13,371 nt of DNA from a virus. The position numbers and the translations under genes are program-made. Shown here one piece after another: positions 2,348 to 13,371 of this stretch. The stretch lies in the UHGV virus genome UHGV-0090146; one strand, 5' to 3'. The stretch's first letter is position 1. The number at the start of each line of letters is the position of its first letter. The notes beneath the pieces were generated by a model that saw only the letters and a program-made list of their open reading frames with translations, did no database searches and was not told the DNA's origin.

Positions 2348-4261
2348 ATGGCTACCACACCAACCAATAAACCAATTCCGTCAGAAGACCCTCGTGACCT
2401 GAAATTTAATGCCGGAAAGATTGACGAGGTAGTGACATCTGACGCGCATTACTACACCGACCGCTTCGGTGTGCGCCGCTGGACAATTGCTGGATTTCAG
2501 CACACCGCAGAAGAAGCAATCAGTAACTATGGATACATTACGATGGACAGCTTCGAAGATGGTGCGACACTGACGCTACCTAATCAGGTTTTGCGTTATG
2601 AGGCAACTGGAGAATATTACCGTTGGGATGGTGAGTTTCCTAAAACCGTTTCTGTAGGTTCTACCCCTGAAACTGCTGGCGGTATTGGGATTGGCGCGTG
2701 GGTTAGTGTTGGCGATGCGTCATTGAGGCATGAACTTGAAATCACAAGCGCTATTCCTTTTGTAAGGCCAGAAAATTTCGGTGGTGTAGGTGATGGAGTG
2801 ACGGATGATACAAATGCAATAAAAGCTGTTATAGCAACTGGGAAACCAATTTCTTTAGTAGGTAAAAAGTGGCTAATAACATCTACCATAGAATTTCCTG
2901 ATGGATATGCTGTTGATGCAAGGTCGTCAGAAATAGTTGCGGACACAGGCTCTGCACCTATCTTCCTTTTTAAGGGTAATAATCTTGGTATGCATTTCAC
3001 AGGCTCATTAGTGAGAGGGACTGCTGGTGCATTCATGAAGTTGGAAGGCCAGACAGATGCGCCTACAGCAAGCAATCAATATGCTAAATTATTAAAACTT
3101 AGTGGTGTCCATATCTCCTCGGCAACTATAGATGCCGCTCTTATTTTCGATAAGGCAGTACGAATAATATTCATTGATAGTTGTGTGTTCTTTTGCAGAA
3201 ACGGAATAATTAGCAATGGTAAGTCTGTAGAGATTACCATTCAAAAATCAGTTATATACGGTGCCACGAGTGATACTGATACTTCTGGTATAAAAATAAC
3301 AAGTTCAGGTGGTGCAAGCAAGTACAGTGAGGGGTGGCATATTTCAGACTGCACAATAGATAATTTCGAAAATACAATTGATCTATCCGATATATTTGTA
3401 TTCACCTTAAATGGTGGCTACACGGCATGTAATTCTAATACCGGATATGCTATTACCGTGCGCGGACCGACTACAACAACTCACTGTCGAGATCTTTATT
3501 TTAACGGCATGTTTGGCGGTAAAATTCGCTTCCTTGACCAAACTGCTGGTCCTGTAACTATGCATGCCAGGATAACAGGAGAACTCCTGTTCACTAAGGC
3601 AGGAACGTGTCTTGCTATTGGGGCAAACATGGCGGCAATTGATATCAGCAACTTAAAGATTGTATCTGCAACGCCTGGTAACACTGCCATCTCTGTAGCG
3701 AACGGGAGTGCCAATATTAATATCCGTGGGATTAGTACAGATGCAACTCTTGGGGCAGGGATTATATTTAATGGGGAGTCAGGCAGTAACTGCTCGATTT
3801 CTGATTTTTCATATTCTGGTTCTGGAGAGGCTTTATCACTTGCTAGGCCAGTTAAGCTTTCCAACGTTCCTACAGTTGGTAGCGAAACTTTGAATTGGTC
3901 AATAAAGTACGATTATGTATCTGCATCAAAAGATGTTGCAGTTGGGTCTTACATAAATCAACTGCAAATGACTATTGCAAGATATAGCAAGATTAAGATT
4001 AATATTAACCTCGCATATTCAGGTGGGGCAGCAAGCAATTCTCAAGTTATTGGAATAACAGTCCCTACTGGGGTGGTTCTGCCAAATGGTACGAACTCGA
4101 TGCAGTTCACATTACCAGCAACTGCTGGAACATTAACTATGAGCATTGATGCAACAACAACGCTAGACTTCAAGAATCTGTCATTCAGCATCGATAACAG
4201 AGCTGGTAACCAACTGCGTATTTTGGCCGGCTCTCACTTGTCTGTATCTTTAGATAATTAA
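2348..4261 (+). CDS. Tailspike / tail fiber with pectate-lyase-like right-handed beta-helix (probable polysaccharide depolymerase, receptor-binding protein)
   Basis: 637-aa ORF with AAGGAG at 2331-2336 upstream of ATG 2348. Motif FGGVGDGVTDDTNAIKAVIATG is typical of the Pectate_lyase_3 / beta-helix N-cap (established family signature). The first ~130 aa form a separate N-terminal domain. A terminator follows. Confidence 0.85.
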   Translation: MATTPTNKPIPSEDPRDLKFNAGKIDEVVTSDAHYYTDRFGVRRWTIAGFQHTAEEAISNYGYITMDSFEDGATLTLPNQVLRYEATGEYYRWDGEFPKTVSVGSTPETAGGIGIGAWVSVGDASLRHELEITSAIPFVRPENFGGVGDGVTDDTNAIKAVIATGKPISLVGKKWLITSTIEFPDGYAVDARSSEIVADTGSAPIFLFKGNNLGMHFTGSLVRGTAGAFMKLEGQTDAPTASNQYAKLLKLSGVHISSATIDAALIFDKAVRIIFIDSCVFFCRNGIISNGKSVEITIQKSVIYGATSDTDTSGIKITSSGGASKYSEGWHISDCTIDNFENTIDLSDIFVFTLNGGYTACNSNTGYAITVRGPTTTTHCRDLYFNGMFGGKIRFLDQTAGPVTMHARITGELLFTKAGTCLAIGANMAAIDISNLKIVSATPGNTAISVANGSANINIRGISTDATLGAGIIFNGESGSNCSISDFSYSGSGEALSLARPVKLSNVPTVGSETLNWSIKYDYVSASKDVAVGSYINQLQMTIARYSKIKININLAYSGGAASNSQVIGITVPTGVVLPNGTNSMQFTLPATAGTLTMSIDATTTLDFKNLSFSIDNRAGNQLRILAGSHLSVSLDN

Positions 4262-4270
4262 CTATCAACT

Positions 4271-4298
4271 AAAACCCCGCTTCGGCGGGGTTTTTTTT
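4271..4298. terminator. Bidirectional rho-independent terminator between convergent tailspike and ssb
   Basis: Hairpin CCCCGC-TTCG-GCGGGG (4275-4290) preceded by AAAA and followed by TTTTTTTT, so it can terminate on either strand. Confidence 0.8.
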
Positions 4299-4302
4299 AT
4301 CA

Positions 4303-4803
4303 TCAGAATGGAATGTCGTCATCGAAGTCCATCGGAGGCTCATTTCCTCCTTGTGGGCTTTGTTGTTTTGGTTGCTGCTGTTGCGGTGTTCCCCATCCTC
4401 CTTGAGGTTGCTGTCCTGATTGCTTGCGTGATTGTTGCTGACCAGAATCATCGCGCTTGCCGCCAAGCATCTGCATGACGCCACCCATCTGTGGAATGAC
4501 AATCTCAGTGGTATATCGGTCTACGCCGTTGCTGTCAGTCCATTTGCGAGTGCGAAGCTGACCTTCGATATAAACCTGCGAGCTTTTGTGAAGGTATTCT
4601 CCTGCAACTTCCGCAAGTTTCCCGAAAATGACTACGCGATGCCACTCTGTCTGTTCTTTCTTTTCTCCTGTCTGCTTGTCTTTCCACTGCTCAGATGTTG
4701 CAACGGAAAGATTGGCAATAGCAGAGCCAGATGCAGAATATTTAACTTCCGGATCGTTACCGAGAGTGCCGACAATAATTACTTTATTTACGCCGCGTGC
4801 CAT
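4303..4803 (-). CDS. ssb: Single-stranded DNA-binding protein
   Basis: 166 aa, near-collinear with E. coli SSB: [49 protein letters not shown], a Gly/Gln/Pro-rich linker and the acidic C-terminal tip [20 protein letters not shown] 9 nt upstream. Confidence 0.95.
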
Positions 4804-4806
4804 TTA

Positions 4807-5847
4807 TTAAAATCCTTCAATTGGAGTTGGTTTATGTTCGATTTTCGCTTCTTCCTGCGGTTCTGGCTGCTGTGGTTGCGGTTTAGCCAGTTTGGCAGGG
4901 TTGAAATTATCCTGCGGAGTTATTACCACAGGAGATAATTGCTCATCATTGATGAAAGACTCAATGCGATCGTATTCTGCAGCAGAAGCAGCCAGAGAAG
5001 GCCAGATTGCGCGAATCTTATCTTTCAGGTTATCAGGTATTGATTTTGCTTCTTCCTTCAAGCCTTCCATGCCTTTTGCGGCGGAAAGCTGAAGTCGTGA
5101 GCGCCATGACTCAAATTCTTCGTCAACTTTAACGCCAGAGTCCACCCATTTGATGAGTCCGCGACCGTGAGCCTCTCCAATATACCCATGACGAACGCTT
5201 TCACGACCAGATTCAAAGAAGATTGGGCGTAGCTCTTCTGGTAATTTGGTAAACTCCTGAATTTTGCCCCCATCGTGCATCATCATGCTCACGGTCATTT
5301 CGAACATGAAGTCTTTCTCGCACACTGGCTGCAACCCCAGCGATACAGGCTCCTTCGGATTTGCGAAGTCAGTTTTCTGGCGAGCACGAAGACATACGAT
5401 GATATGCATATTGCTTTGCAGCATAGCATTCATGAACTTCTTGTGTTCAGCTTTGGCACGCTTCCAGTCAGCCATTTTTTTTCCGTTAAGCAGAGGCTTT
5501 TCAGCAATCTCAGTGCAACTTCCTTCTCCTTCCCATTCGTGCGAGCCAGAATCAATAACAAGGACCTTAACGCCAGCAGCCTGAAACTCTTCAATGGCCT
5601 GACGGTAGCGAGCCGGGCTGAATGGAGCATACATATCAGCGTGCAGGAATTTACCATCAAGGATGTTTGAATACAGACGACCGCGACCGTTTTCAGTATC
5701 AAGGAATCCGATTTCTTCTGGTGAGTCAACCATCCCGCGAGCCAGCTTAAGTGCGCTATATGTTTTTCCGCTACCAGACTGACCGGAAATACCGATGACC
5801 ACGCGAGAACCTGAACGCTCTGCTGGTTTAATATTGAGAATACCCAT
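4807..5847 (-). CDS. RecA-fold / AAA_24 (Sak4-like) ATPase, probable recombination mediator
   Basis: Walker A GISGQSGSGKT near the N-terminus and Walker-B-like KVLVIDSGS. Pro/Gln-rich C-terminal tail. ORF extends to 5856 (GTG), but ATG at 5847 has the best spacing to a GAGGTG RBS. Stop lies 3 nt before the ssb start. Confidence 0.6.
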   Translation of the reverse strand: MGILNIKPAERSGSRVVIGISGQSGSGKTYSALKLARGMVDSPEEIGFLDTENGRGRLYSNILDGKFLHADMYAPFSPARYRQAIEEFQAAGVKVLVIDSGSHEWEGEGSCTEIAEKPLLNGKKMADWKRAKAEHKKFMNAMLQSNMHIIVCLRARQKTDFANPKEPVSLGLQPVCEKDFMFEMTVSMMMHDGGKIQEFTKLPEELRPIFFESGRESVRHGYIGEAHGRGLIKWVDSGVKVDEEFESWRSRLQLSAAKGMEGLKEEAKSIPDNLKDKIRAIWPSLAASAAEYDRIESFINDEQLSPVVITPQDNFNPAKLAKPQPQQPEPQEEAKIEHKPTPIEGF

Positions 5848-5864
5848 TTGCATCACCTCACTAA

Positions 5865-6821
5865 TTATAAATTAAATTGCTTCTTGAACCATTCAGGCGT
5901 TTCCATTTCGATGACAGGATTACCCATTGAATAACCCGGCCACGAATTAGCTTTTTTGCACGCCTTGTAAATTTCCATTGCACCATTCAACTGAATGCGA
6001 CCGATTCGTAATTGCTCTTCAGTCAAACGAATCAAAGCAGGAATGAACGGCGCTTTCTTTTCCTGCACGAGAAGATTCACAGAGCGTGGAGCGTGGCCGT
6101 ATGCCGCAACAAACATATCGTGTTGCATAGCCATTTTCATAAAGTAGCCAAGTCGCGCAGCATGACGGAAAAACTCATCAGGCTTTGCGCTAACTGCCGT
6201 TTTGTAGTCAATGATGTCACCACCTTTTGTCAGGCAGTCAAAACGAACCTTTGCCTTTTCTCCGTAAAGCTCACCGAGGATTGACACTTCAGCGTAAGCT
6301 CCGGCAAGAAGACTGCTGTAATAGCTGTTTGCGTGGATTACAGCGCGCATTTGCTGAATAGCGTCGTAGTCACCACCTTCGAGCATTTTCTTTCCTGCCG
6401 CAGCTTTTTCAGCTTCTTCACGGATGACATCGTAAATCTTCACTGGTTCGCCAGTTGCACGAATGATTTTGACCACCTCAGTTTTAGACTTCCCTGAGAG
6501 TCCTTTGATGCCTCGTTCTTTCGCCCATGAATTCATATCAGCAGTAGTTACCAGTACCGTGGGTTTTCCATCTTTGTCTTTTGGAAAATCATCTACAACT
6601 GGCATACGAGCATATTCAGCATCGAAACGTTCAGGTTCAAGCAGAGCTGTATGGCTTCCTGTGCCGAAAATTAGGGCTTTTGACTGCTCATCTTCTTCGT
6701 CTTTGTAGCGCCAAGCTGCGGGACATCTGTCATAAATGTTCCACAGGCCAGAACCATTAATATGCTCGGTGTCGGCGTGGTATTGCTCATTGGTTAATTC
6801 ATTATTGAAATAGACTTTCAT
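5865..6821 (-). CDS. PD-(D/E)xK family nuclease (RecE/Cas4-like exonuclease candidate)
   Basis: ORF to 6833 (GTG); ATG at 6821 is preceded by GAGG at 6-nt spacing. Contains RFD...GDIIDYKT, consistent with a D...(D/E)xK nuclease core. Lies between the ATPase and VRR-NUC genes. Confidence 0.55.
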   Translation of the reverse strand: MKVYFNNELTNEQYHADTEHINGSGLWNIYDRCPAAWRYKDEEDEQSKALIFGTGSHTALLEPERFDAEYARMPVVDDFPKDKDGKPTVLVTTADMNSWAKERGIKGLSGKSKTEVVKIIRATGEPVKIYDVIREEAEKAAAGKKMLEGGDYDAIQQMRAVIHANSYYSSLLAGAYAEVSILGELYGEKAKVRFDCLTKGGDIIDYKTAVSAKPDEFFRHAARLGYFMKMAMQHDMFVAAYGHAPRSVNLLVQEKKAPFIPALIRLTEEQLRIGRIQLNGAMEIYKACKKANSWPGYSMGNPVIEMETPEWFKKQFNL

Positions 6822-6858
6822 TGTTAACCTCACTCATCATCACGTAAATGAATCTACA

Positions 6859-7284
6859 TCAATCCACATCAAAAGGCAAGCCAAAATAGAAAAGCGTGGC
6901 TTTTTTTAGTTCATCAAGTCCGTAAGCGATGGCGGCATAATGACCAAGCCTGCACATCTCAGTTAACACGGACGATTGCTCCTTGCTCACCCTGCTTTTG
7001 CTTTTGTCACGTCGCTTTGACTCAATCATCCCGCAACTGTGCTTCACTCCCGGCGTCATTATCACATTGTCGCCTATTCCAGTCTTAACACCCATCTTCT
7101 GGCGCTTCAGCACAAACTGCACCCTGCTTGATGTACCAGTTTCGTTTGGCACATGAAACCACAGAACATCAGGGAAGCGATGTTGCATCCATGTACCGTA
7201 ACCCATCTGGTCAGTCTCTTCTTTCGGACACTCCCCACGATAACCGCTATCAAACACCCATATACCACTGTCAAGCTGCTTCAC
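6859..7284 (-). CDS. VRR-NUC domain nuclease
   Basis: 141 aa with WFHVPNETG ... GIGDNVIM ... MIESK, matching the VRR-NUC / PD-(D/E)xK pattern. GTG start preceded by AGGAG with 6-nt spacer. Overlaps the helicase 3' end by 14 nt. Confidence 0.65.
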   Translation of the reverse strand: MKQLDSGIWVFDSGYRGECPKEETDQMGYGTWMQHRFPDVLWFHVPNETGTSSRVQFVLKRQKMGVKTGIGDNVIMTPGVKHSCGMIESKRRDKSKSRVSKEQSSVLTEMCRLGHYAAIAYGLDELKKATLFYFGLPFDVD

Positions 7285-9196
7285 TTTGTTCTCCTGTGAA
7301 ATCTTTTCTGTGGATTATATCTCGACCTTTATCATTAATACGATGCGTGATGCGTTTTGGCGCTTTAATCAACCCTGCATACATCATGAACTGTTTGGCG
7401 TTCTGGCATTTCAGGATTTTCCCAGCTATTGATTTATCATCAAGGTGAGGAAAGACCGCCTTTGCCTTGAACATGTTTTTCATGTGAGTTGCGCCGCCAT
7501 AAGGGTAGAAAACTTCATTAGCCCAGCCTTCTTTGCCATCACAACGGTTAATCCAGTAGCGATATAAAATTCCCTCTCCGTCCTTCGTCAACTGGACTTT
7601 GAAGTCCATAACATCAGCCCATTCGTTGTCGGTATACGCGCGTTCATTCAGTGCCGCATTCGGGTCGCGCAAAACATGATCGCAATGTCGACAATAACGC
7701 GCCGTTGGGTCGTTTTTAGTGCCGCAACCATCATCAAAAATGCGTATTCCGTGCTTATCGAAGCCGCAACGAATGTAACTGAAAAACTCCTCGCAACGAC
7801 CATCTGGCGATAGTGGGTCTTTTCCTATGCAGCGGCGCGCATATGGGCTGTTCATTGTTCCACATGTGTGACACGGAACTTGTTCGCCACTGCGTTTTGA
7901 ACGTTGTGCTTCGGCTTCTTCAAGAATTGGGTCTTCATATAGCTGACCAAGCTCAAACATCGTTCCTGAGAAATCAAGAACCAGATGGTCTTCTTTATGA
8001 TACCCGGCATCAATTTGTTCTTTCTTCAGCAGGCGCATTCCGCGGCCAAGCAACTGAACAAGAAGGGTGAGTGACATTATTTTTCGTAATATGCAGCTCG
8101 TATCCCATAACGGTATATTTACGCCAGTTGTAAGTGCGGCTATCTGGAATGTGAATTTTTTGCGCCCGGTGTATGCATCTTTTAGAGCCTTCCTTCTGGC
8201 TTTTGACCCCATATCTTCTGTAACTATTGAATAACTCCCTTCTGGTAGGTATTTTGCCGCCTCCTGACAATGTTTTTTACCAGCACATGTAATCAGTACG
8301 CCGTTTCTGTTTTTAGTCAACTCCATAACCTTGAGCATGATTTTCTGCGTCAACGTACCTTGCTCAAGAATTTCTTTTTGCATCTGCTTGAGCTGCTCGG
8401 AGGTAAAGTCCTGAGTGCCATCAACATCTGAACCATGAAAATCTGAAAGGTCATAATGCAGACTATCAACATCATGAAGACCAAAAATTGTTGGCACAAG
8501 AAAACCGTTTTCAACCATGTATTTGGTGTCTATGTTGATAATCTCCTTCTTCCAGAAAGCGCCTTTTATTGATGTAGTTCCGCGAAACGGTGAGCCTGTA
8601 TAACCTATTATTCTCAACTCATGGCCGTGCTTATCTTTGCACCTTTTCATTAGCTCATTAATTATCACTGCATACTGCGTATCACCATTATTAACAACAT
8701 CAATGTCATTAACCATATGATTTTCATCGATAAGCAGGAATCTTGGGCAAAAGTCAGAGAGCGCACCTTTTGCAATAACATTCCCTGACTCATCCTTTTT
8801 ATCAAACAAAGCATTTATAACAGTACCCTCAGAACCACAGATTATTGGATAAGTAGAACTTTTCCTACCCAACGAAGCACTGAATAGCGAGTTTCTAACA
8901 CCAAGTGACCATAGCTCTTCCGCATCTTGCTCCACTATTTCGCCCTGTCTTGATAAAATCATCCCTGAATAGCCCATTTCCTGAAAACGTTTTGCTATCA
9001 TGGCAATCATCAGGGACTTTCCACTACCGACACTTGCTGTTACATAGCTTGGTCCAACATAATGTCGTATCACATCACCTGTTAACTTATATATCAACCA
9101 CTGATATGGTCTTGGCTCGATATCACCAGTATCCAAGCAAGATTTCAGCAAGTTAATGTCAATCTCTGAAATCATTTTGTCTATTTTATGCGTCAT
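7271..9196 (-). CDS. SF2 (DEAD/DExH-box) DNA helicase with Cys-rich C-terminal zinc-ribbon region
   Basis: 641 aa with Walker A TASVGSGKS, DExH-like LLIDENH and an arginine-finger-like LLGRGMR. Cys cluster CHTCG...RRC...GRC...RCG...DDGCG...YCRHCDH follows. ATG at 9194-9196. Confidence 0.85.
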   Translation of the reverse strand: MTHKIDKMISEIDINLLKSCLDTGDIEPRPYQWLIYKLTGDVIRHYVGPSYVTASVGSGKSLMIAMIAKRFQEMGYSGMILSRQGEIVEQDAEELWSLGVRNSLFSASLGRKSSTYPIICGSEGTVINALFDKKDESGNVIAKGALSDFCPRFLLIDENHMVNDIDVVNNGDTQYAVIINELMKRCKDKHGHELRIIGYTGSPFRGTTSIKGAFWKKEIINIDTKYMVENGFLVPTIFGLHDVDSLHYDLSDFHGSDVDGTQDFTSEQLKQMQKEILEQGTLTQKIMLKVMELTKNRNGVLITCAGKKHCQEAAKYLPEGSYSIVTEDMGSKARRKALKDAYTGRKKFTFQIAALTTGVNIPLWDTSCILRKIMSLTLLVQLLGRGMRLLKKEQIDAGYHKEDHLVLDFSGTMFELGQLYEDPILEEAEAQRSKRSGEQVPCHTCGTMNSPYARRCIGKDPLSPDGRCEEFFSYIRCGFDKHGIRIFDDGCGTKNDPTARYCRHCDHVLRDPNAALNERAYTDNEWADVMDFKVQLTKDGEGILYRYWINRCDGKEGWANEVFYPYGGATHMKNMFKAKAVFPHLDDKSIAGKILKCQNAKQFMMYAGLIKAPKRITHRINDKGRDIIHRKDFTGEQSEAA

Positions 9197-9271
9197 AGCA
9201 ACTAACCTTTGTTGATGTTTCTACGTCAGTTAGCTTATACTCAATCTACACCAACAATCAAGGGTCAATTT
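9197..9271. promoter_or_regulatory. Divergent intergenic control region between helicase (-) and primase (+)
   Basis: 75-bp gap between divergent starts. Plus strand has TTGATG (9212-9217), 18-nt spacer, TATACT (9236-9241). A weaker candidate exists on the minus strand. Confidence 0.3.
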
Positions 9272-10225
9272 ATGAGATACGACTGGAAGGACATTGAACC
9301 AAAAATGCTCGGAAATTGGCAAGCTGCCATCATGTCTATCGTCAATGTGGATAGCAGAGTTTTCAATGGCAAGCACCAGCCATGCCCGTCATGCCTTGGC
9401 AAAGACAGGTATCGTTTTGATGATAACTTCGAAACAAAAGGCGATGGCGGAGCAATCTGCAACCAGTGTGGTTCCGGAAGCGGAATGAACTGGCTGATGA
9501 GACTATCCGGAATGAGCTTTCCTGAAGCACTGGAGGCGCTGGGAGGATTCCTGAACATGCACCCTCGCGAAAAGCTGGAGGCAATCAGGAAGGAACTACC
9601 GAAGATAAATCACAACGATGACTTCATCACCGAGCAGGAAGTCGCCGCGATCATGGCTAAAACGACTTGTGTCGCGATGAGTGAGTGGACGCTGATAAAT
9701 GGTATTGGTTGCGACATTAACGTCGTCAGAGGTAAATCCAGAGAGCTTATTGCGGTTGAGATGATGCGCTCTGACACAATGAAGCCATGCAACGTGGCAT
9801 TCATTGGCATGGGTGGTGATTCATTCAAAACTTTTTTCCGCGCAGGATACAACAAGTACTCAGCCATCAACGGTAAACTCACGCGCGGCGCGATAAGCCC
9901 AATCGGAGAAGATAACGGAAAGTTCATTTACCTGGTATCTGATTATGCAGATGCGTGGAAATGCCATTACTTCACTGGTGCGCATGTCTGGTGCTGCTGG
10001 TCGCCGGAAAACATGTGGGAAGTGGTGCGCTCTGTTAGCGATGAGGTGAAAGCGAGGTTGCGCTGCATAGTTAATTATAAATTCGACGAGCTGTGCGCCG
10101 CAGAGAATGCAGGCCTTCCGGTGATGCTTCCTGATGATGCTGACACTATCAGGATGGCAAAGAGAATCATGAGAAAGATTTATGACGCTGGCGAGTTGAT
10201 AGAAAAAATGTCAGTCAGCAGATAA
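9272..10225 (+). CDS. DNA primase (N-terminal zinc-ribbon; Toprim-like core inferred)
   Basis: Zinc-binding signature CPSCLGKDRYRFDD...GGAICNQCGSGSGMNWL, typical of phage/plasmid primase N-termini. AAGGG RBS 7 nt before ATG 9272. The track ORF begins at 9209 but would overlap the helicase start and candidate promoter. Confidence 0.65.
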   Translation: MRYDWKDIEPKMLGNWQAAIMSIVNVDSRVFNGKHQPCPSCLGKDRYRFDDNFETKGDGGAICNQCGSGSGMNWLMRLSGMSFPEALEALGGFLNMHPREKLEAIRKELPKINHNDDFITEQEVAAIMAKTTCVAMSEWTLINGIGCDINVVRGKSRELIAVEMMRSDTMKPCNVAFIGMGGDSFKTFFRAGYNKYSAINGKLTRGAISPIGEDNGKFIYLVSDYADAWKCHYFTGAHVWCCWSPENMWEVVRSVSDEVKARLRCIVNYKFDELCAAENAGLPVMLPDDADTIRMAKRIMRKIYDAGELIEKMSVSR

Positions 10226-10253: not shown

Positions 10254-10670
10254 TTATTCATTGAACTCTGGCGCTTGAGTCCAGAAGGCTACATTTCGCA
10301 GCGACTTACCCGTGTGATTGCACCAGTATATTCCTGAGTCATCATACTTGGCAGTAACCTTGACTCGATCAGCATCAATAATAACAACCTCCTGCCCATC
10401 ATTAGGGTCGAAAAGACGCGCATCTTTCCAGTTAGCAATCTCATTAAGGGAAAGAAGCACATAACCGGGAAGATAAGCTTCGACATCAGCGATGTGAACT
10501 ATTGTTCGCTCCGCTCTCTCTCCTGTGTAGTCTCCATTCCACTCATAAAGAATAATCGTGTCTCCAACCTTAAAATCACGATCGTTCTTTCTTAGCTCCG
10601 CCTTCTTGTGTCCGGTAACTACAGGCCAGAAGTGTTCAGGTAAGATTTTTAGTTCGTGTTTTTTGCTCAT
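10254..10670 (-). CDS. ASCH / DUF3850-like (PUA-fold) domain protein with C-terminal extension
   Basis: N-terminal MSKKHELKILPEHFWPVVTGHKKAELRKNDRDFKVGDTIILYEW fits the DUF3850/ASCH pattern as recalled. ATG at 10668-10670 has GAGGA 8 nt upstream and lies 1 nt from the stop of the upstream 65-aa gene. The in-frame extension to 10700 is less likely. Confidence 0.6.
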   Translation of the reverse strand: MSKKHELKILPEHFWPVVTGHKKAELRKNDRDFKVGDTIILYEWNGDYTGERAERTIVHIADVEAYLPGYVLLSLNEIANWKDARLFDPNDGQEVVIIDADRVKVTAKYDDSGIYWCNHTGKSLRNVAFWTQAPEFNE

Positions 10671-10671
10671 T

Positions 10672-10869
10672 TCAAACATCCTCATAACACCAATATGCAA
10701 CGCAAATTATTTCAACCAAATCATTTGATGATAAAAATTTATTACCATCATAAATTGCGTGAATTCTTTCACCATCAACAGTTAATGCCATAACATTTCT
10801 TCCTATCTGCGGACGCCAGAGATAGCAATCAAACCATTCAACATCATACCAATCATCTTCTGGACTCAT
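10672..10869 (-). CDS. Hypothetical protein (65 aa), translationally coupled
   Basis: ATG overlaps the stop of the 491-aa gene (ATGA) and is preceded by GAGGT. Its stop lies 1 nt before the ASCH gene start. No recognisable motif. Confidence 0.55.
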   Translation of the reverse strand: MSPEDDWYDVEWFDCYLWRPQIGRNVMALTVDGERIHAIYDGNKFLSSNDLVEIICVAYWCYEDV

Positions 10870-12341
10870 TTCAACCTCGGATTTATGTGCACAGTGTTTC
10901 CGATAAATACGCAGTAACCATCCTCTTCAAGTGATGGCAATACACTTGACCTGAGGCGGTCGTAAATTTTAGGTATTCCTTTGAATGGCCTAACATTTTT
11001 AAGTGAATCATAAAGCCACTTTACCGTTACGTTTGTTTTTCCTTTCTGAGCGGCAGAGCGTAGCTTTTCGGCAACAACATCAAATTCAGAACGCTCGCCA
11101 GCATATCCATTTGATTCCACGGCGTCGGTGAATGTTTTTGTCAGTGCGTCATAAACGCTGATAGCGCGACTAATTTCATTTTCACAGATAATTTTTGACC
11201 TCTTTCCTCCATCACACCAGTTTTCAGCAGCGTGAAATATTGCTGCCAGGCGGATTATTTGCTTATCAGCTTTACCCATTGCACCACGAAGAAGAACATG
11301 GTCCCACTTACCGCCTGGAAGGAAGTTTTTCTCCCACTGGTTTCGCAACATGCCGATCATTCTTGCTGAATCATTGTGAAGAGTCAGTCTTGTTTTTTCT
11401 GCTGACACAACATTATGTATAAATCTTGCATATTCCGACCTCAAGCTGTCTGGCATTGGCTTGCTTACAGGGCAGTCATTAACCATGTCCCAGTGTTCGC
11501 GATAGCCAAGCATTGATTGCTCGCGCAACATCAGGAAACGTTCAGAAAGACCGTTCCCCCTGTCGCCAGCGGCAAGAATGGCATCAATACTTTCATCCTG
11601 CGCAATCACACTTATGTTTCCAAGCACGTAACCAGATGAAACGCCACGACCAACACGAGCAGAGCCAATGAATCCTCCATCCCAGCCCTTCAGGATGACT
11701 TCGGCGTTTGCCTTTCCACCTTCTTTTCCGTAAGAGAGGCCAAGGCATGTGTTAAGGACGCTTGCCTCGTCACTTATCAGGTTAAAAAACCCACCTTCAT
11801 GGATGGCCTGATGCTGAACAGCCTCCGGCGTTGCGTCCGTCAGTGGATATGTAATCGTATAAAGCTCTTCCAGCTTCTCCTTTTCCCGAGCAATATCATC
11901 GCCGATTAGTGCCTTTGCATTCTGATTACTGGCCTCTTTATATGCCTTCATCAACTCTTCAATGCGAAGATTTATTTTTATGATCTGCTTTTCCATCTTT
12001 TTGGAAAGATTGTCATATTCAATCTTCACCGGATTCATGTGCATTGAGTTGATGGCGGTTTTCCCTGCTGATGGAGGCTGAGAAGTAACCACGTAAAGAG
12101 AAACTGGAAGTTCTGAATGGTAATACTCAACGCTAAAGTTTCTCGTCATTGCGCTGGCAACGCACCCAAGCAAATGCATGAACGATGTATTTATTGGGAA
12201 CTGAACGGCACGAGCTGCAGCGATTGCATAACGAGACAGCAAATCAGTCCGGTGCTCACTGGTAAGTTCTGTTTCTGAGTACGTTACATCACGCTCCTTA
12301 CCTTCCTTGATGTCAAGCCACATATTTGAGCTTGGTGTCAT
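10866..12341 (-). CDS. Hypothetical protein (491 aa) with degenerate P-loop NTPase-like motifs; possible DUF3987-like replication-associated protein
   Basis: Long ORF with SQPPSAGKTA (GKT, P-loop-like) and, about 90 aa later, FNLISDEAS (hydrophobic stretch plus DE, Walker-B-like). No canonical SD before ATG 12341 and an alternative Met at 12323, so the start is uncertain. Family assignment is from memory only. Confidence 0.8.
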   Translation of the reverse strand: MTPSSNMWLDIKEGKERDVTYSETELTSEHRTDLLSRYAIAAARAVQFPINTSFMHLLGCVASAMTRNFSVEYYHSELPVSLYVVTSQPPSAGKTAINSMHMNPVKIEYDNLSKKMEKQIIKINLRIEELMKAYKEASNQNAKALIGDDIAREKEKLEELYTITYPLTDATPEAVQHQAIHEGGFFNLISDEASVLNTCLGLSYGKEGGKANAEVILKGWDGGFIGSARVGRGVSSGYVLGNISVIAQDESIDAILAAGDRGNGLSERFLMLREQSMLGYREHWDMVNDCPVSKPMPDSLRSEYARFIHNVVSAEKTRLTLHNDSARMIGMLRNQWEKNFLPGGKWDHVLLRGAMGKADKQIIRLAAIFHAAENWCDGGKRSKIICENEISRAISVYDALTKTFTDAVESNGYAGERSEFDVVAEKLRSAAQKGKTNVTVKWLYDSLKNVRPFKGIPKIYDRLRSSVLPSLEEDGYCVFIGNTVHINPRLK

Positions 12342-12414
12342 GATGGAAGGCGACGCGAGCAGGAGATACTTTTAATTCCCTTGCTTCGTTGAAGATGTCT
12401 TGAGCTGTAATCAT
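12313..12414 (-). CDS. Possible small ORF (33 aa, MITAQDIFNEARELKVSPARVAFHHDTKLKYVA)
   Basis: ATG at 12412-12414 preceded by AAGGG with 7-nt spacer. It overlaps the stop of the upstream small ORF (TGATG) and the 5' end of the 491-aa gene. Too short to validate by sequence alone. Confidence 0.25.
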   Translation of the reverse strand: MITAQDIFNEARELKVSPARVAFHHDTKLKYVA

Positions 12415-12614
12415 CACTGAACCCTTAAAATTGTTAATTCGCATGTGTCCCTGTTGTATTTTGTCCAGTACACAAAGTCGCTTTTCTTCGAAATTTTGGA
12501 CAGGCACATCCTGAAAATAAGCACCTCAACACCTATCGCCTTAAGATTTATAATCTTTTTCTCGTCAACCCTCATTCTTGAGACTATATCGCGAACTCGT
12601 TTCATGTTTGACAT
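12414..12614 (-). CDS. Possible small ORF (66 aa from MSNMKRVRDIV...)
   Basis: Sits directly downstream of a strong minus-strand promoter candidate. Weak RBS. Basic protein with no recognisable domain. Confidence 0.3.
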   Translation of the reverse strand: MSNMKRVRDIVSRMRVDEKKIINLKAIGVEVLIFRMCLSKISKKSDFVYWTKYNRDTCELTILRVQ

Positions 12615-12650
12615 TTTTACCGCCAACCGTGGTTAATCATGGTGTGAAAG

Positions 12651-12679
12651 ATTATATAAAGATATAAACGAAATGGCAA
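12651..12679 (-). promoter_or_regulatory. Sigma70-like promoter for the minus-strand operon
   Basis: On the minus strand: TTGCCA (plus 12674-12679), exact 17-nt spacer, perfect TATAAT (plus 12651-12656). About 30-40 nt upstream of the first minus-strand ORF. Confidence 0.55.
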
Positions 12680-12740
12680 CCATATCATTCTTGGCGTGGT
12701 TTAAGCGACTAAATGGTTATCTGTGGGTAACGTGGGTAAG

Positions 12741-12767
12741 GCGTGGGGCAACCAACCTTCCCCACGA
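12741..12767. repeat. 27-bp repeat copy 1 (GCGTGGGGCAACCAACCTTCCCCACGA), internally palindromic
   Basis: Identical to the copy at 12929-12955. Contains inverted arms CGTGGGG / CCCCACG separated by 11 nt. Confidence 0.85.
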
Positions 12768-12928
12768 AGTTTTCCTATAAGTATATGTAATATAATAAAA
12801 TTATTATTATTTGGGTTAATGGGTACAAATGGATTATTTGAATATATTTATAAGGGGATGGGTATGAAATCTTCCCCTTTTTACCCACGAAAAATAAAAA
12901 CATTCAAATCAATTATTTACGATGAAAA

Positions 12929-12955
12929 GCGTGGGGCAACCAACCTTCCCCACGA
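12929..12955. repeat. 27-bp repeat copy 2 (identical to 12741-12767)
   Basis: Exact 27/27 match to copy 1, 188 bp away, in the same orientation. Confidence 0.85.
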
Positions 12956-13008
12956 CCTGCCCCACGGGCAAAAATTTACCCCACGAGCACGTTTTTAACG
13001 CATTCCTG

Positions 13009-13037
13009 TTGACGTGGAATCATAGCTGATGTAGATT
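13009..13037 (+). promoter_or_regulatory. Sigma70-like promoter for the rightward small-gene operon
   Basis: TTGACG (13009-13014), 17-nt spacer, TAGATT (13032-13037). GAGGGTGAAGAG RBS and ATG at 13068 lie about 30 nt downstream. Confidence 0.5.
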
Positions 13038-13067
13038 GAACTCATCGAAACAAACGAGGGTGAAGAG

Positions 13068-13214
13068 ATGAAAATCAAAGACCGTGAAGAATTTGAAGAT
13101 GCACAGGCTATGGCTCGCATTGCAGTTGAACGCACAAACAACAGCATTCCAGCAGATGCATTCTGGAACGCTGCAATGCAGGCATTAATCTCAGCGTATG
13201 GGTTAAGCAAATGA
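13068..13214 (+). CDS. Hypothetical small protein (48 aa, MKIKDREEFEDAQAMARIAVERTNN...)
   Basis: Not in the ORF track because it is short. RBS GAGGGTG upstream. Its stop overlaps the next ATG (ATGA). Confidence 0.45.
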   Translation: MKIKDREEFEDAQAMARIAVERTNNSIPADAFWNAAMQALISAYGLSK

Positions 13215-13306
13215 CAGGCGCATCATTTGAACTTATCGCCAGTCTGGTTATCGTGGCATTCATCATTATCGCAGTGGCAGTTTCTAAATCAGGATATAAG
13301 GAGTAA
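13211..13306 (+). CDS. Hypothetical small membrane peptide (31 aa, single predicted TM helix)
   Basis: MTGASFELIASLVIVAFIIIAVAVSKSGYKE has a hydrophobic core flanked by charged residues. ATGA overlap with the upstream gene. The downstream AAGGAG serves the next gene. Confidence 0.35.
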   Translation: MTGASFELIASLVIVAFIIIAVAVSKSGYKE

Positions 13307-13309
13307 TAA

Positions 13310-13371
13310 ATGGCAAAGACTATCTATCGTCGCGAAAAACTGGAACAAGAACTCGGTCACGTTGGCGCGCA
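13310..13371 (+). CDS. Hypothetical protein, 5' end only (MAKTIYRREKLEQELGHVGA...)
   Basis: ATG at 13310 preceded by AAGGAG at optimal spacing. ORF runs off the window end. Confidence 0.5.
   Translation, partial: MAKTIYRREKLEQELGHVGA

Follow-up and report, generated by a model that had tools for sequence, protein, structure and literature searches.

A compact five-gene operon of a Skatevirus-type siphophage and its predicted role in DNA recombination and repair

Gene content and layout of the locus

The viral DNA studied here (the window) is a stretch of 13,371 nt of genome UHGV-0090146, and our analysis centers on positions 4303 to 7284. [quoted passage not shown] We conclude that the locus is probably an ordinary, tightly packed DNA recombination/repair operon of a Skatevirus-type phage. 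The type of system is known, its parts come from known families, and near-identical phages are present in GenBank.

Over 97 to 98% of their length, bases 4200 to 7400 share 88 to 91.5% DNA identity with sequenced Salmonella and Escherichia coli siphophages, of which there are more than 30. The closest is Salmonella virus VSt472, of the genus Skatevirus (91.5%), and one of the matching records is labeled as an Acinetobacter phage. The gene names in these records are mixed and include "hypothetical protein," "exonuclease VIII," "recombinase," "AAA domain protein," "VRR-NUC domain," "single-stranded DNA-binding protein," and "DNA helicase / RadD." Given the many sequenced matches and the mixed names, the region has evidently been sequenced repeatedly already and annotated in part. 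The genes are real rather than chance open reading frames (ORFs), as each has strong homologues and the DNA identity extends across the matching phages. Antisense ORFs on the plus strand of 4303 to 7284 (e.g., 4432 to 4938 and 5275 to 5670) were taken as shadows of the minus-strand genes.

The helicase gene runs from 9196 to 7271 and overlaps the VRR-NUC gene by 14 nt (7271 to 7284). The VRR-NUC gene begins with GTG at 7284 and ends at 6859, and is separated by 37 nt (6822 to 6858) from the exonuclease gene, which begins with ATG at 6821 and ends at 5865. After 17 nt (5848 to 5864) follows the ATPase gene (ATG at 5847, stop at 4807), and after a further 3 nt (4804 to 4806) the SSB gene (ATG at 4803, stop at 4303). 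These coordinates, with the three gaps and the overlap, agree exactly with those of an initial annotation of the sequence when the minus strand is read again. A ribosome-binding site (GAGG, AGGAG, or GAAGGA) lies 6 to 9 nt 5' of each of the four starts. For the ATPase it is a GAGG 8 nt upstream, and the homologues all begin M-[GSA]-I-L; for the exonuclease it is a GAGG 6 nt upstream; and for the VRR-NUC gene it is an AGGAG 6 nt upstream, with homologues that are 141 amino acids (aa) long and begin MKQL. A program-made ORF list places two of the starts some codons earlier (GTG 5856 and GTG 6833), but the starts of the initial annotation are preferred here, in view of the ribosome-binding sites and of how the homologues align.

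A GC-rich hairpin with flanking runs of A and T lies at 4271 to 4294 (no strand assigned). Its 10-bp stem contains 6 GC pairs, and the T-run is on the plus strand. The sequence aaaaaaaaccccgccgaagcggggtttt stands directly after the SSB stop codon, and on the minus strand just four T follow the stem. The hairpin is likely a bidirectional intrinsic terminator, predicted to end the recombination operon, which is read leftward, as well as the tailspike gene, which is read rightward. The initial annotation had described a unit of four genes. Because the helicase gene overlaps the group at one end and a terminator follows SSB at the other, we extend the operon to five genes, encoding the RadD-like helicase, the VRR-NUC nuclease, the RecE-type exonuclease, an ATPase of the AAA_24 family, and SSB.

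Protein families encoded by the operon

The SSB (4303 to 4803, minus strand, 166 aa) is of the bacterial type, with an OB domain, a linker rich in Gln, Pro, and Gly, and the C-terminal tip DFDDDIPF. It scores above threshold with both PF00436 (E = 2.4e-37; 127.6 bits, cutoff 26) and TIGR00621 (183.5 bits, cutoff 53.95), matches phrog_44 (5.6e-58), and can be aligned from end to end with E. coli SSB (1eqq; 2.4e-64), so that its original identification as an SSB is secure. The tip, after the Q/P/G-rich stretch, is identical to the E. coli SSB C terminus (SSB-Ct) quoted in PMC10238739 and is, by its sequence, of the canonical partner-recruiting type.

Searches of PDB with the ATPase, the exonuclease, and the 141-aa protein as single sequences returned nothing useful for any of the three, and family profiles were needed for this reason. 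The exonuclease gene (5865 to 6821, minus strand) encodes 318 aa. Its first description as a PD-(D/E)xK exonuclease, to be checked with hidden Markov models, is upheld by Pfam DUF3799 (PDDEXK-like; 88.5 bits, cutoff 26), by phrog_412, "exonuclease VIII" (6.4e-94), and by alignment with RecE. In the NCBIfam exoVIII model, the match is confined to the C-terminal nuclease domain (positions 612 to 875; 1.9e-10), and a BLASTP comparison with E. coli RecE gave 2e-5. When 35 phage homologues from the fetched loci described below were aligned with RecE residues 606 to 866, H57, E178, D195, D205, and K207 of the window protein fell opposite H652, E729, D748, D759, and K761 of RecE. Four of these (H57, E178, D195, and K207) are conserved in at least 95% of the phage homologues, and D205 is D in 31 of the 35. 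We take H652, D748, D759, and K761 to be active-site residues of RecE, and H57, E178, D195, D205, and K207 are the putative active-site residues of the phage enzyme. As judged from these alignments, the protein is a RecE-type enzyme reduced to the exonuclease VIII nuclease domain, without the N-terminal part of RecE (~600 residues).

The first gene of the operon (7271 to 9196, minus strand) encodes an SF2 helicase/ATPase of 641 aa with zinc ribbons. It matches the NCBIfam RadD model (NF053632) over its full length (6.3e-53), with 179.9 bits, which is far under the equivalog cutoff of 720; we therefore regard it as a homologue of RadD and not as an orthologue. Its sole PDB match is E. coli RadD (YejH; 6jde, 9e-32), with which it aligns nearly from end to end. 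In BLASTP, identity is 27% over 516 columns (E = 7e-45) that include the Cys-rich zinc-ribbon region, with the C-terminal ~125 residues left unaligned. Helicase_C and ResIII are matched as well, and zinc-ribbon matches lie at residues 442 to 457 and 491 to 509. The E. coli protein speeds strand exchange by RecA and binds the SSB C terminus (PMC8887467, PMC10238739) in a pocket that has R21, R49, and R145 as its frame (PMC10238739). In a single pairwise alignment at 27% identity, R21 corresponds to R44 of the phage helicase and R145 to the R of its ELRIIG motif, whereas R49 is replaced by Q72, with K69 and R70 nearby. The retention of two of the three pocket arginines in the phage sequence is suggestive only. 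The presumed partner of the phage helicase would be the Sak4-like ATPase, in place of the RecA with which E. coli RadD works.

The gene at 6859 to 7284 (minus strand, GTG start) encodes a divergent standalone VRR-NUC nuclease of 141 aa, a putative resolvase of Holliday junctions or branched DNA. A profile built from 23 close homologues matched exactly one PDB sequence, psNUC (4QBL; E = 1.3e-4), with the GxxD and ExK blocks aligned. The AlphaFold (AF2) model (pLDDT 85.6) has chains of 4QBL as its six best Foldseek matches (E = 5e-6; TM 0.66/0.76), followed by FAN1 (4rea) and by 4qbn/4qbo. The two proteins thus share a fold and are of similar length (145 aa in psNUC), and their PD…ExK motifs correspond, reading GVKAGYPD…IEIKK in the window and GVKTGIGD…IESKR in psNUC, with the next Gln also aligned. 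Identity is ~20%, however, and the window protein belongs to a divergent subfamily that stays under the Pfam threshold and is filed in phrog_824, "unknown function." An exhaustive search with the family profile found 1739 relatives. In a sample of 65 sequences, made up of the window protein and 64 relatives down to 23% identity, 39 match Pfam VRR_NUC at E <= 0.01 (best 2e-12). Residues E22, H44, D72, K90, and Q103 are invariant in this sample, and conservation reaches at least 90% for N47, E48, and E88; the VRR-NUC catalytic pattern E…(P)D…E-x-K and the subsequent conserved Gln are present. Standalone VRR-NUC proteins are dimeric Holliday-junction resolvases, of which psNUC is the best behaved and acts as a canonical dimeric enzyme; symmetric cleavage of four-way junctions by the homodimer has been shown for psNUC, stNUC, and saNUC only (PMC4103454). 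The profile and fold matches to psNUC, together with the transitive homology, support both the VRR-NUC identity proposed at the outset and a role as resolvase, by way of a divergent subfamily.

The ATPase (4807 to 5847, minus strand, 346 aa) is the putative recombinase or annealase of the set. It passes the AAA_24 model proposed for it in the initial annotation (46.8 bits, cutoff 27) and matches phrog_1366, which PHROG labels "unknown function" (2e-83), and phrog_124, "Sak4-like ssDNA annealing protein" (5e-8). As a yardstick, the experimentally validated Sak4 of phage HK620 (hkaL) reaches 30.0 bits with AAA_24 and 1.9e-5 with phrog_124, so that the window protein scores higher on both. Its motifs are a Walker A sequence GQSGSGKT (residues 22 to 29), LDTEN (49 to 53), and a Walker B sequence VLVIDS (95 to 100). 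Across 31 homologues, down to 51% identity, G25, G27, K28, and T29, D50, E52, and N53, and D99 and S100 are invariant. The LD-T-EN block aligns with FIDAEH of RecA, which makes E52 the counterpart of the catalytic Glu (RecA E96). The AF2 model (pLDDT 82.6) consists of a RecA-like core from residue 1 to ~220, a helical domain at 225 to 300, and a disordered tail at 303 to 346. In Foldseek, each of the 37 best PDB matches of the model is a Rad51 paralog complex, RAD51, or RecA, with E values from 1e-7 to 4e-5, and phage proteins under the names "AAA domain," "AAA-ATPase," and "RecA-like (DNA) recombinase" are among its BFVD matches. A profile of the C-terminal region (residues 212 to 346) has no significant relative in PDB or Pfam, and by sequence no recognized domain, whether of RecA, DnaB, or another protein, resembles the extra one.

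Sak4 is an annealase that is stimulated by SSB and depends on the SSB C-terminal tip; the HK620 protein does not carry out strand exchange (PMC5928155). Sak4 genes occur alongside genes for RecE-like exonucleases in phage genomes (PMC2896510). Judging from sequence and model, we conclude that the window ATPase would work like Sak4-type RecA-fold recombinases and is probably related to them, but that it is an extended variant. The term "Sak4-like," as first applied to it, accordingly holds for its AAA_24 and phrog_124 matches and its RecA/Rad51-type fold, and does not hold for its length, which exceeds that of a core-only Sak4.

Gene order in relatives, the ATPase tail, and flanking genes

We fetched 80 viral contigs encoding relatives of the ATPase, and the window proteins and the VRR-NUC profile served as queries against the ORFs of these contigs. 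In all complete Skatevirus-like loci the genes run helicase, VRR-NUC, exonuclease, ATPase, SSB. Loci L029, L031, L033-35, L042, L061, and L080, where the ATPase is only 50 to 57% identical, share this order for the first four genes. Three of these (L031, L033, and L035) have a divergent SSB (phrog_44, 2e-10 to 8e-7) adjoining or near the ATPase, with tips reading …STPF, …KDIPF, or …DFDDDIPF. In four more distant loci (L041, L053, L065, and L078), the ATPase gene is directly followed by an exonuclease gene of another family (phrog_4763/149 or phrog_5715), with one MazG-like gene between the two in L053. A RuvC-like Holliday-junction resolvase (phrog_1770) is encoded within ~3 kb of the ATPase in L041 and L065, and in L076 a PDDEXK_1-FtsK/HerA fusion follows the ATPase. 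The ATPase is thus constant while the exonuclease and the resolvase are replaced, which is the pattern expected of a functional unit centered on a recombinase.

Relatives also carry extra genes within the module. An ORF of 58 aa (phrog_7393) or 91 aa (phrog_1273) lies between the exonuclease and VRR-NUC genes; extra genes were located at L002:8538-8714, L001:8529-8804, and L086:3026-3526. In phage ZCEC08, an HNH endonuclease gene lies between those for the ATPase and SSB. The 37-nt and 3-nt spacers of the window fall at these insertion slots, and the window is therefore the most compact version seen.

The C-terminal tail of the ATPase (window positions 4807 to 4944, residues 303 to 346) is disordered, and conservation in it is poor except at an FNPA motif and the extreme tip. 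Among 116 full-length homologues, the FNPA motif is found in 83, a terminal Phe in 90, and an acidic residue within four positions before the last in 111. The usual endings are IENF, IEGF, IEEF, IEDF, and NEDF, of which the window has IEGF, while the ATPases of L061 and L080 end in DDDPFA or DDDPFAT. Across 83 loci, uncorrected for phylogeny, endings in Phe or near-terminal endings of the DDPF/DDF/DDCF type are almost confined to loci with a neighboring RecE-type exonuclease, and these loci usually encode the RadD-like helicase and VRR-NUC as well. The sole exception is L032, whose ATPase ends in Phe and for which no neighbor was detected. ATPases with other neighbors end in …LP, …LKGL, and similar sequences. 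A separate ATPase clade (L037, L043, L045-L047, L049, L074, L076, and L083) has the tip …(I/V/L)(E/N/D)LP, and another (L066, L069-L073, and L077) ends in …SYLKGL or …SYLKSL.

In sequence, the acidic-x-Phe tip of the ATPase resembles the C-terminal tip of SSB. It is also similar to the tails of T7 gp2.5 and gp4, which are acidic and end in Phe. These tip patterns suggest that the ATPase family has clade-specific C-terminal docking motifs, and that the tail of the window ATPase may dock on a partner from the same module.

On the far side of the operon from SSB, the helicase gene and a divergent primase gene are ~75 nt apart (9197 to 9271). The start of the primase gene is probably ATG 9272 and not TTG 9209. 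At the corresponding place upstream of the helicase (L002:11093-11740), VSt472 has an HNH endonuclease gene, and ST1UNAM and ZCEC08 have an ORF of 264 nt. The primase (9272-10225, plus strand; PF08273, phrog_510) has a zinc ribbon. It is followed on the minus strand by genes for a DUF3850/ASCH protein (10254-10700), found in the scan of the window proteins, and for a DUF3987 protein (10866-12341) that is probably a replicative helicase (phrog_2373, "DNA helicase"). Small minus-strand ORFs of 64 to 71 aa (10672-10869, 12313-12507, and 12995-13210) have no PHROG match, and no gene was assigned in the last kilobase of the window (12342-13371). There is no DNA polymerase gene in the window. To the other side, on the plus strand, lie a central tail protein gene (2-2308; phrog_469, 5e-226), whose ORF is cut by the window edge, and a gene for a tailspike or tail fiber (2348-4261), in which tail PHROGs match the N-terminal ~170 residues only. 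The DNA match to relatives begins only at about base 4267, just past the end of this latter gene, which suggests that the receptor-binding gene has been swapped.

Predicted recombination pathway and alternatives

We consider it quite probable, from homology, that the five packed genes form an early-gene recombination/repair operon of a lytic siphophage of the Skatevirus type. In the predicted pathway, the RecE-type exonuclease would resect the 5' strands at phage genome ends or at breaks, and the phage SSB would cover the 3' single strand so exposed. The RecA-fold ATPase would then be recruited to the SSB-coated DNA through the SSB tip, as HK620 Sak4 is (PMC5928155), and would anneal or pair this strand with its complement on a second genome copy or at a replication fork. 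The RadD-like ATPase may remodel or extend the joint, and the presumably dimeric VRR-NUC nuclease may cut the four-way or branched junctions so formed. The net outcome would be concatemers, recombination-dependent replication, and debranching before packaging. Such a combination of exonuclease, annealase, and SSB with a junction nuclease fits what is reported in PMC5928155, PMC2896510, and PMC4103454, as well as the synteny described above. The initial annotation had proposed a recombination system, and its proposal, kept as putative, is in line with the Sak4/SSB and VRR-NUC literature and with the conserved gene order.

Among characterized systems, the closest parallels differ from the window in defined ways. 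HK620, whose Sak4 has counterparts in PA73 and phi31, also has an AAA_24 RecA-fold ATPase gene directly upstream of an SSB gene, and the SSBs of HK620 and the window both end in an acidic tip of the (D/N)xxPF type. However, HK620 Sak4 has 226 aa, whereas the window ATPase has an added helical domain and a disordered, acidic, Phe-ended tail; the window SSB is close to the host SSB, whereas that of HK620 has no Pfam match; and the partner of the window ATPase is a RecE-type exonuclease, whereas the RecBCD modifier Abc2 is encoded by HK620. RecET of the Rac prophage and lambda Red likewise have a gene for a 5'-3' PD-(D/E)xK exonuclease adjoining that for an annealase, and the window exonuclease is homologous to the nuclease domain of RecE. 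Unlike RecET and Red, the window operon also includes genes for SSB, a helicase, and a putative resolvase, and it has no identified Gam-like gene. Its putative annealase has a RecA fold, in contrast to the Rad52-like fold of RecT and Redβ. For this reason "Red/RecET-like," as the system was initially described, is fair as a functional analogy only and does not extend to family membership.

Several observations weigh against this interpretation. TM-scores of the ATPase model to RecA and Rad51 are just 0.35 to 0.40 over the whole chain. A match of the ATPase profile to RecA sequences (3.7e-11) proved to be an artifact of PDB chains made of concatenated RecA repeats (6.6 bits per repeat) and is not counted as sequence evidence. 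When the profile was compared with HK620 Sak4 (hhalign), Walker A alone was aligned, with a probability of 10%. Lopes et al. (2010) accepted only proteins of <290 aa as Sak4 (PMC2896510), and the window ATPase is longer than this core-only filter allows. Helicases, loaders, and KaiC-like proteins are likewise found among the RecA-fold ATPases. The 141-aa protein, searched as a single sequence, fails the simple Pfam VRR_NUC check suggested for it at the outset (12.6 bits, cutoff 23.8; E = 0.14). No RecBCD inhibitor of the Gam or Abc2 type was identified among the window proteins scanned. A consensus scan for an operon promoter gave fewer sites than chance and none that was convincing upstream of the helicase. 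We found no experimental study of the region in the literature that mentions Skatevirus, and the main text of PMC9825161, on gene essentiality in Skatevirus seszw, names none of these genes.

The mode of action of the ATPase could differ from Red/RecET-style annealing. If its helical domain provided a secondary DNA-binding function, one missing from core-only Sak4, the protein might perform true strand exchange of the RecA type, which we regard as unlikely. The RadD-like protein would then speed this exchange, as E. coli RadD does with RecA, and VRR-NUC would resolve genuine Holliday junctions. This domain lies beyond the RecA core and is confidently modeled, a RadD homologue is cotranscribed and coconserved, E. 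coli RadD works only with RecA (PMC8887467), and a nuclease of the Holliday-junction-resolvase type is present; yet HK620 Sak4 has no strand exchange (PMC5928155), and for the C-terminal profile of the ATPase no similarity could be detected to the C-terminal domain of RecA, the N-terminal domain of Rad51, or entries in Pfam or PDB. We likewise give only a low probability to the fuller proposal that the ATPase represents a distinct, extended Sak4-like branch whose tail occupies a pocket of the SSB-Ct type, within a five-protein machine for resection, pairing, branch migration, and resolution that includes true strand exchange. Were this so, the likeliest target of the tail would be the cotranscribed RadD-like helicase or, failing that, the RecE-type exonuclease.

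The genes could also serve ends other than recombination, with the ATPase and SSB as parts of the replisome (an NTP-binding helicase loader or fork-restart factor and a replicative SSB) and the nucleases acting in counter-defense or in degradation of host DNA to supply nucleotides; the cluster would then be a general block for DNA metabolism. The operon does adjoin genes for a primase and a putative DUF3987 helicase, some distant ATPase loci hold DnaC-like loaders and an HTH/Phg_2220_C protein, the AAA_24 family is broad, and VRR-Nuc domains can be DNA-breaking toxins in type VI secretion system effectors (PMC9635880). We nevertheless doubt this strongly, as the structural neighbors of the ATPase are recombinases and not loaders, an exonuclease partners it in every locus checked even where the family has switched, a junction resolvase of another family is present in two of the four loci without VRR-NUC, and the solved protein most closely related to the nuclease is a resolvase specific for junctions (PMC4103454). 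A replicative helicase or loader was rejected as the main interpretation of the ATPase. For the 141-aa protein, it is more improbable still that it is some generic PD-(D/E)xK nuclease (homing or restriction-like) and not a VRR-NUC resolvase. The failed Pfam match and the uninformative phrog_824 label would allow this, and HNH homing endonucleases do land in the module in relatives. The only PDB match of the family profile is psNUC, however, the fold matches psNUC, FAN1, and the other two VRR-NUC structures, and VRR_NUC is detected in much of the sampled family. In addition, its fixed gene position and translational coupling to the helicase are unlike those of mobile endonuclease genes.

A recombination/repair operon thus remains our preferred interpretation of the locus, and it provides names for genes that are mostly "hypothetical protein" in the GenBank records of this group. 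At the family level, the sequence evidence would allow phrog_1366 to be annotated as a Sak4-like RecA-fold recombinase and phrog_824 as a VRR-NUC junction nuclease. The ATPase and SSB, possibly with the exonuclease, are a candidate tool for recombineering in enterobacteria. A small hypothesis that can be tested cheaply, on the wiring between phage recombinases and their partners, comes from the SSB-like tail of the ATPase. The compact and conserved five-gene recombination set occurs in lytic siphophages under development for biocontrol of Salmonella and E. coli, and homologous recombination of this type drives mosaicism and affects the ease of phage engineering.

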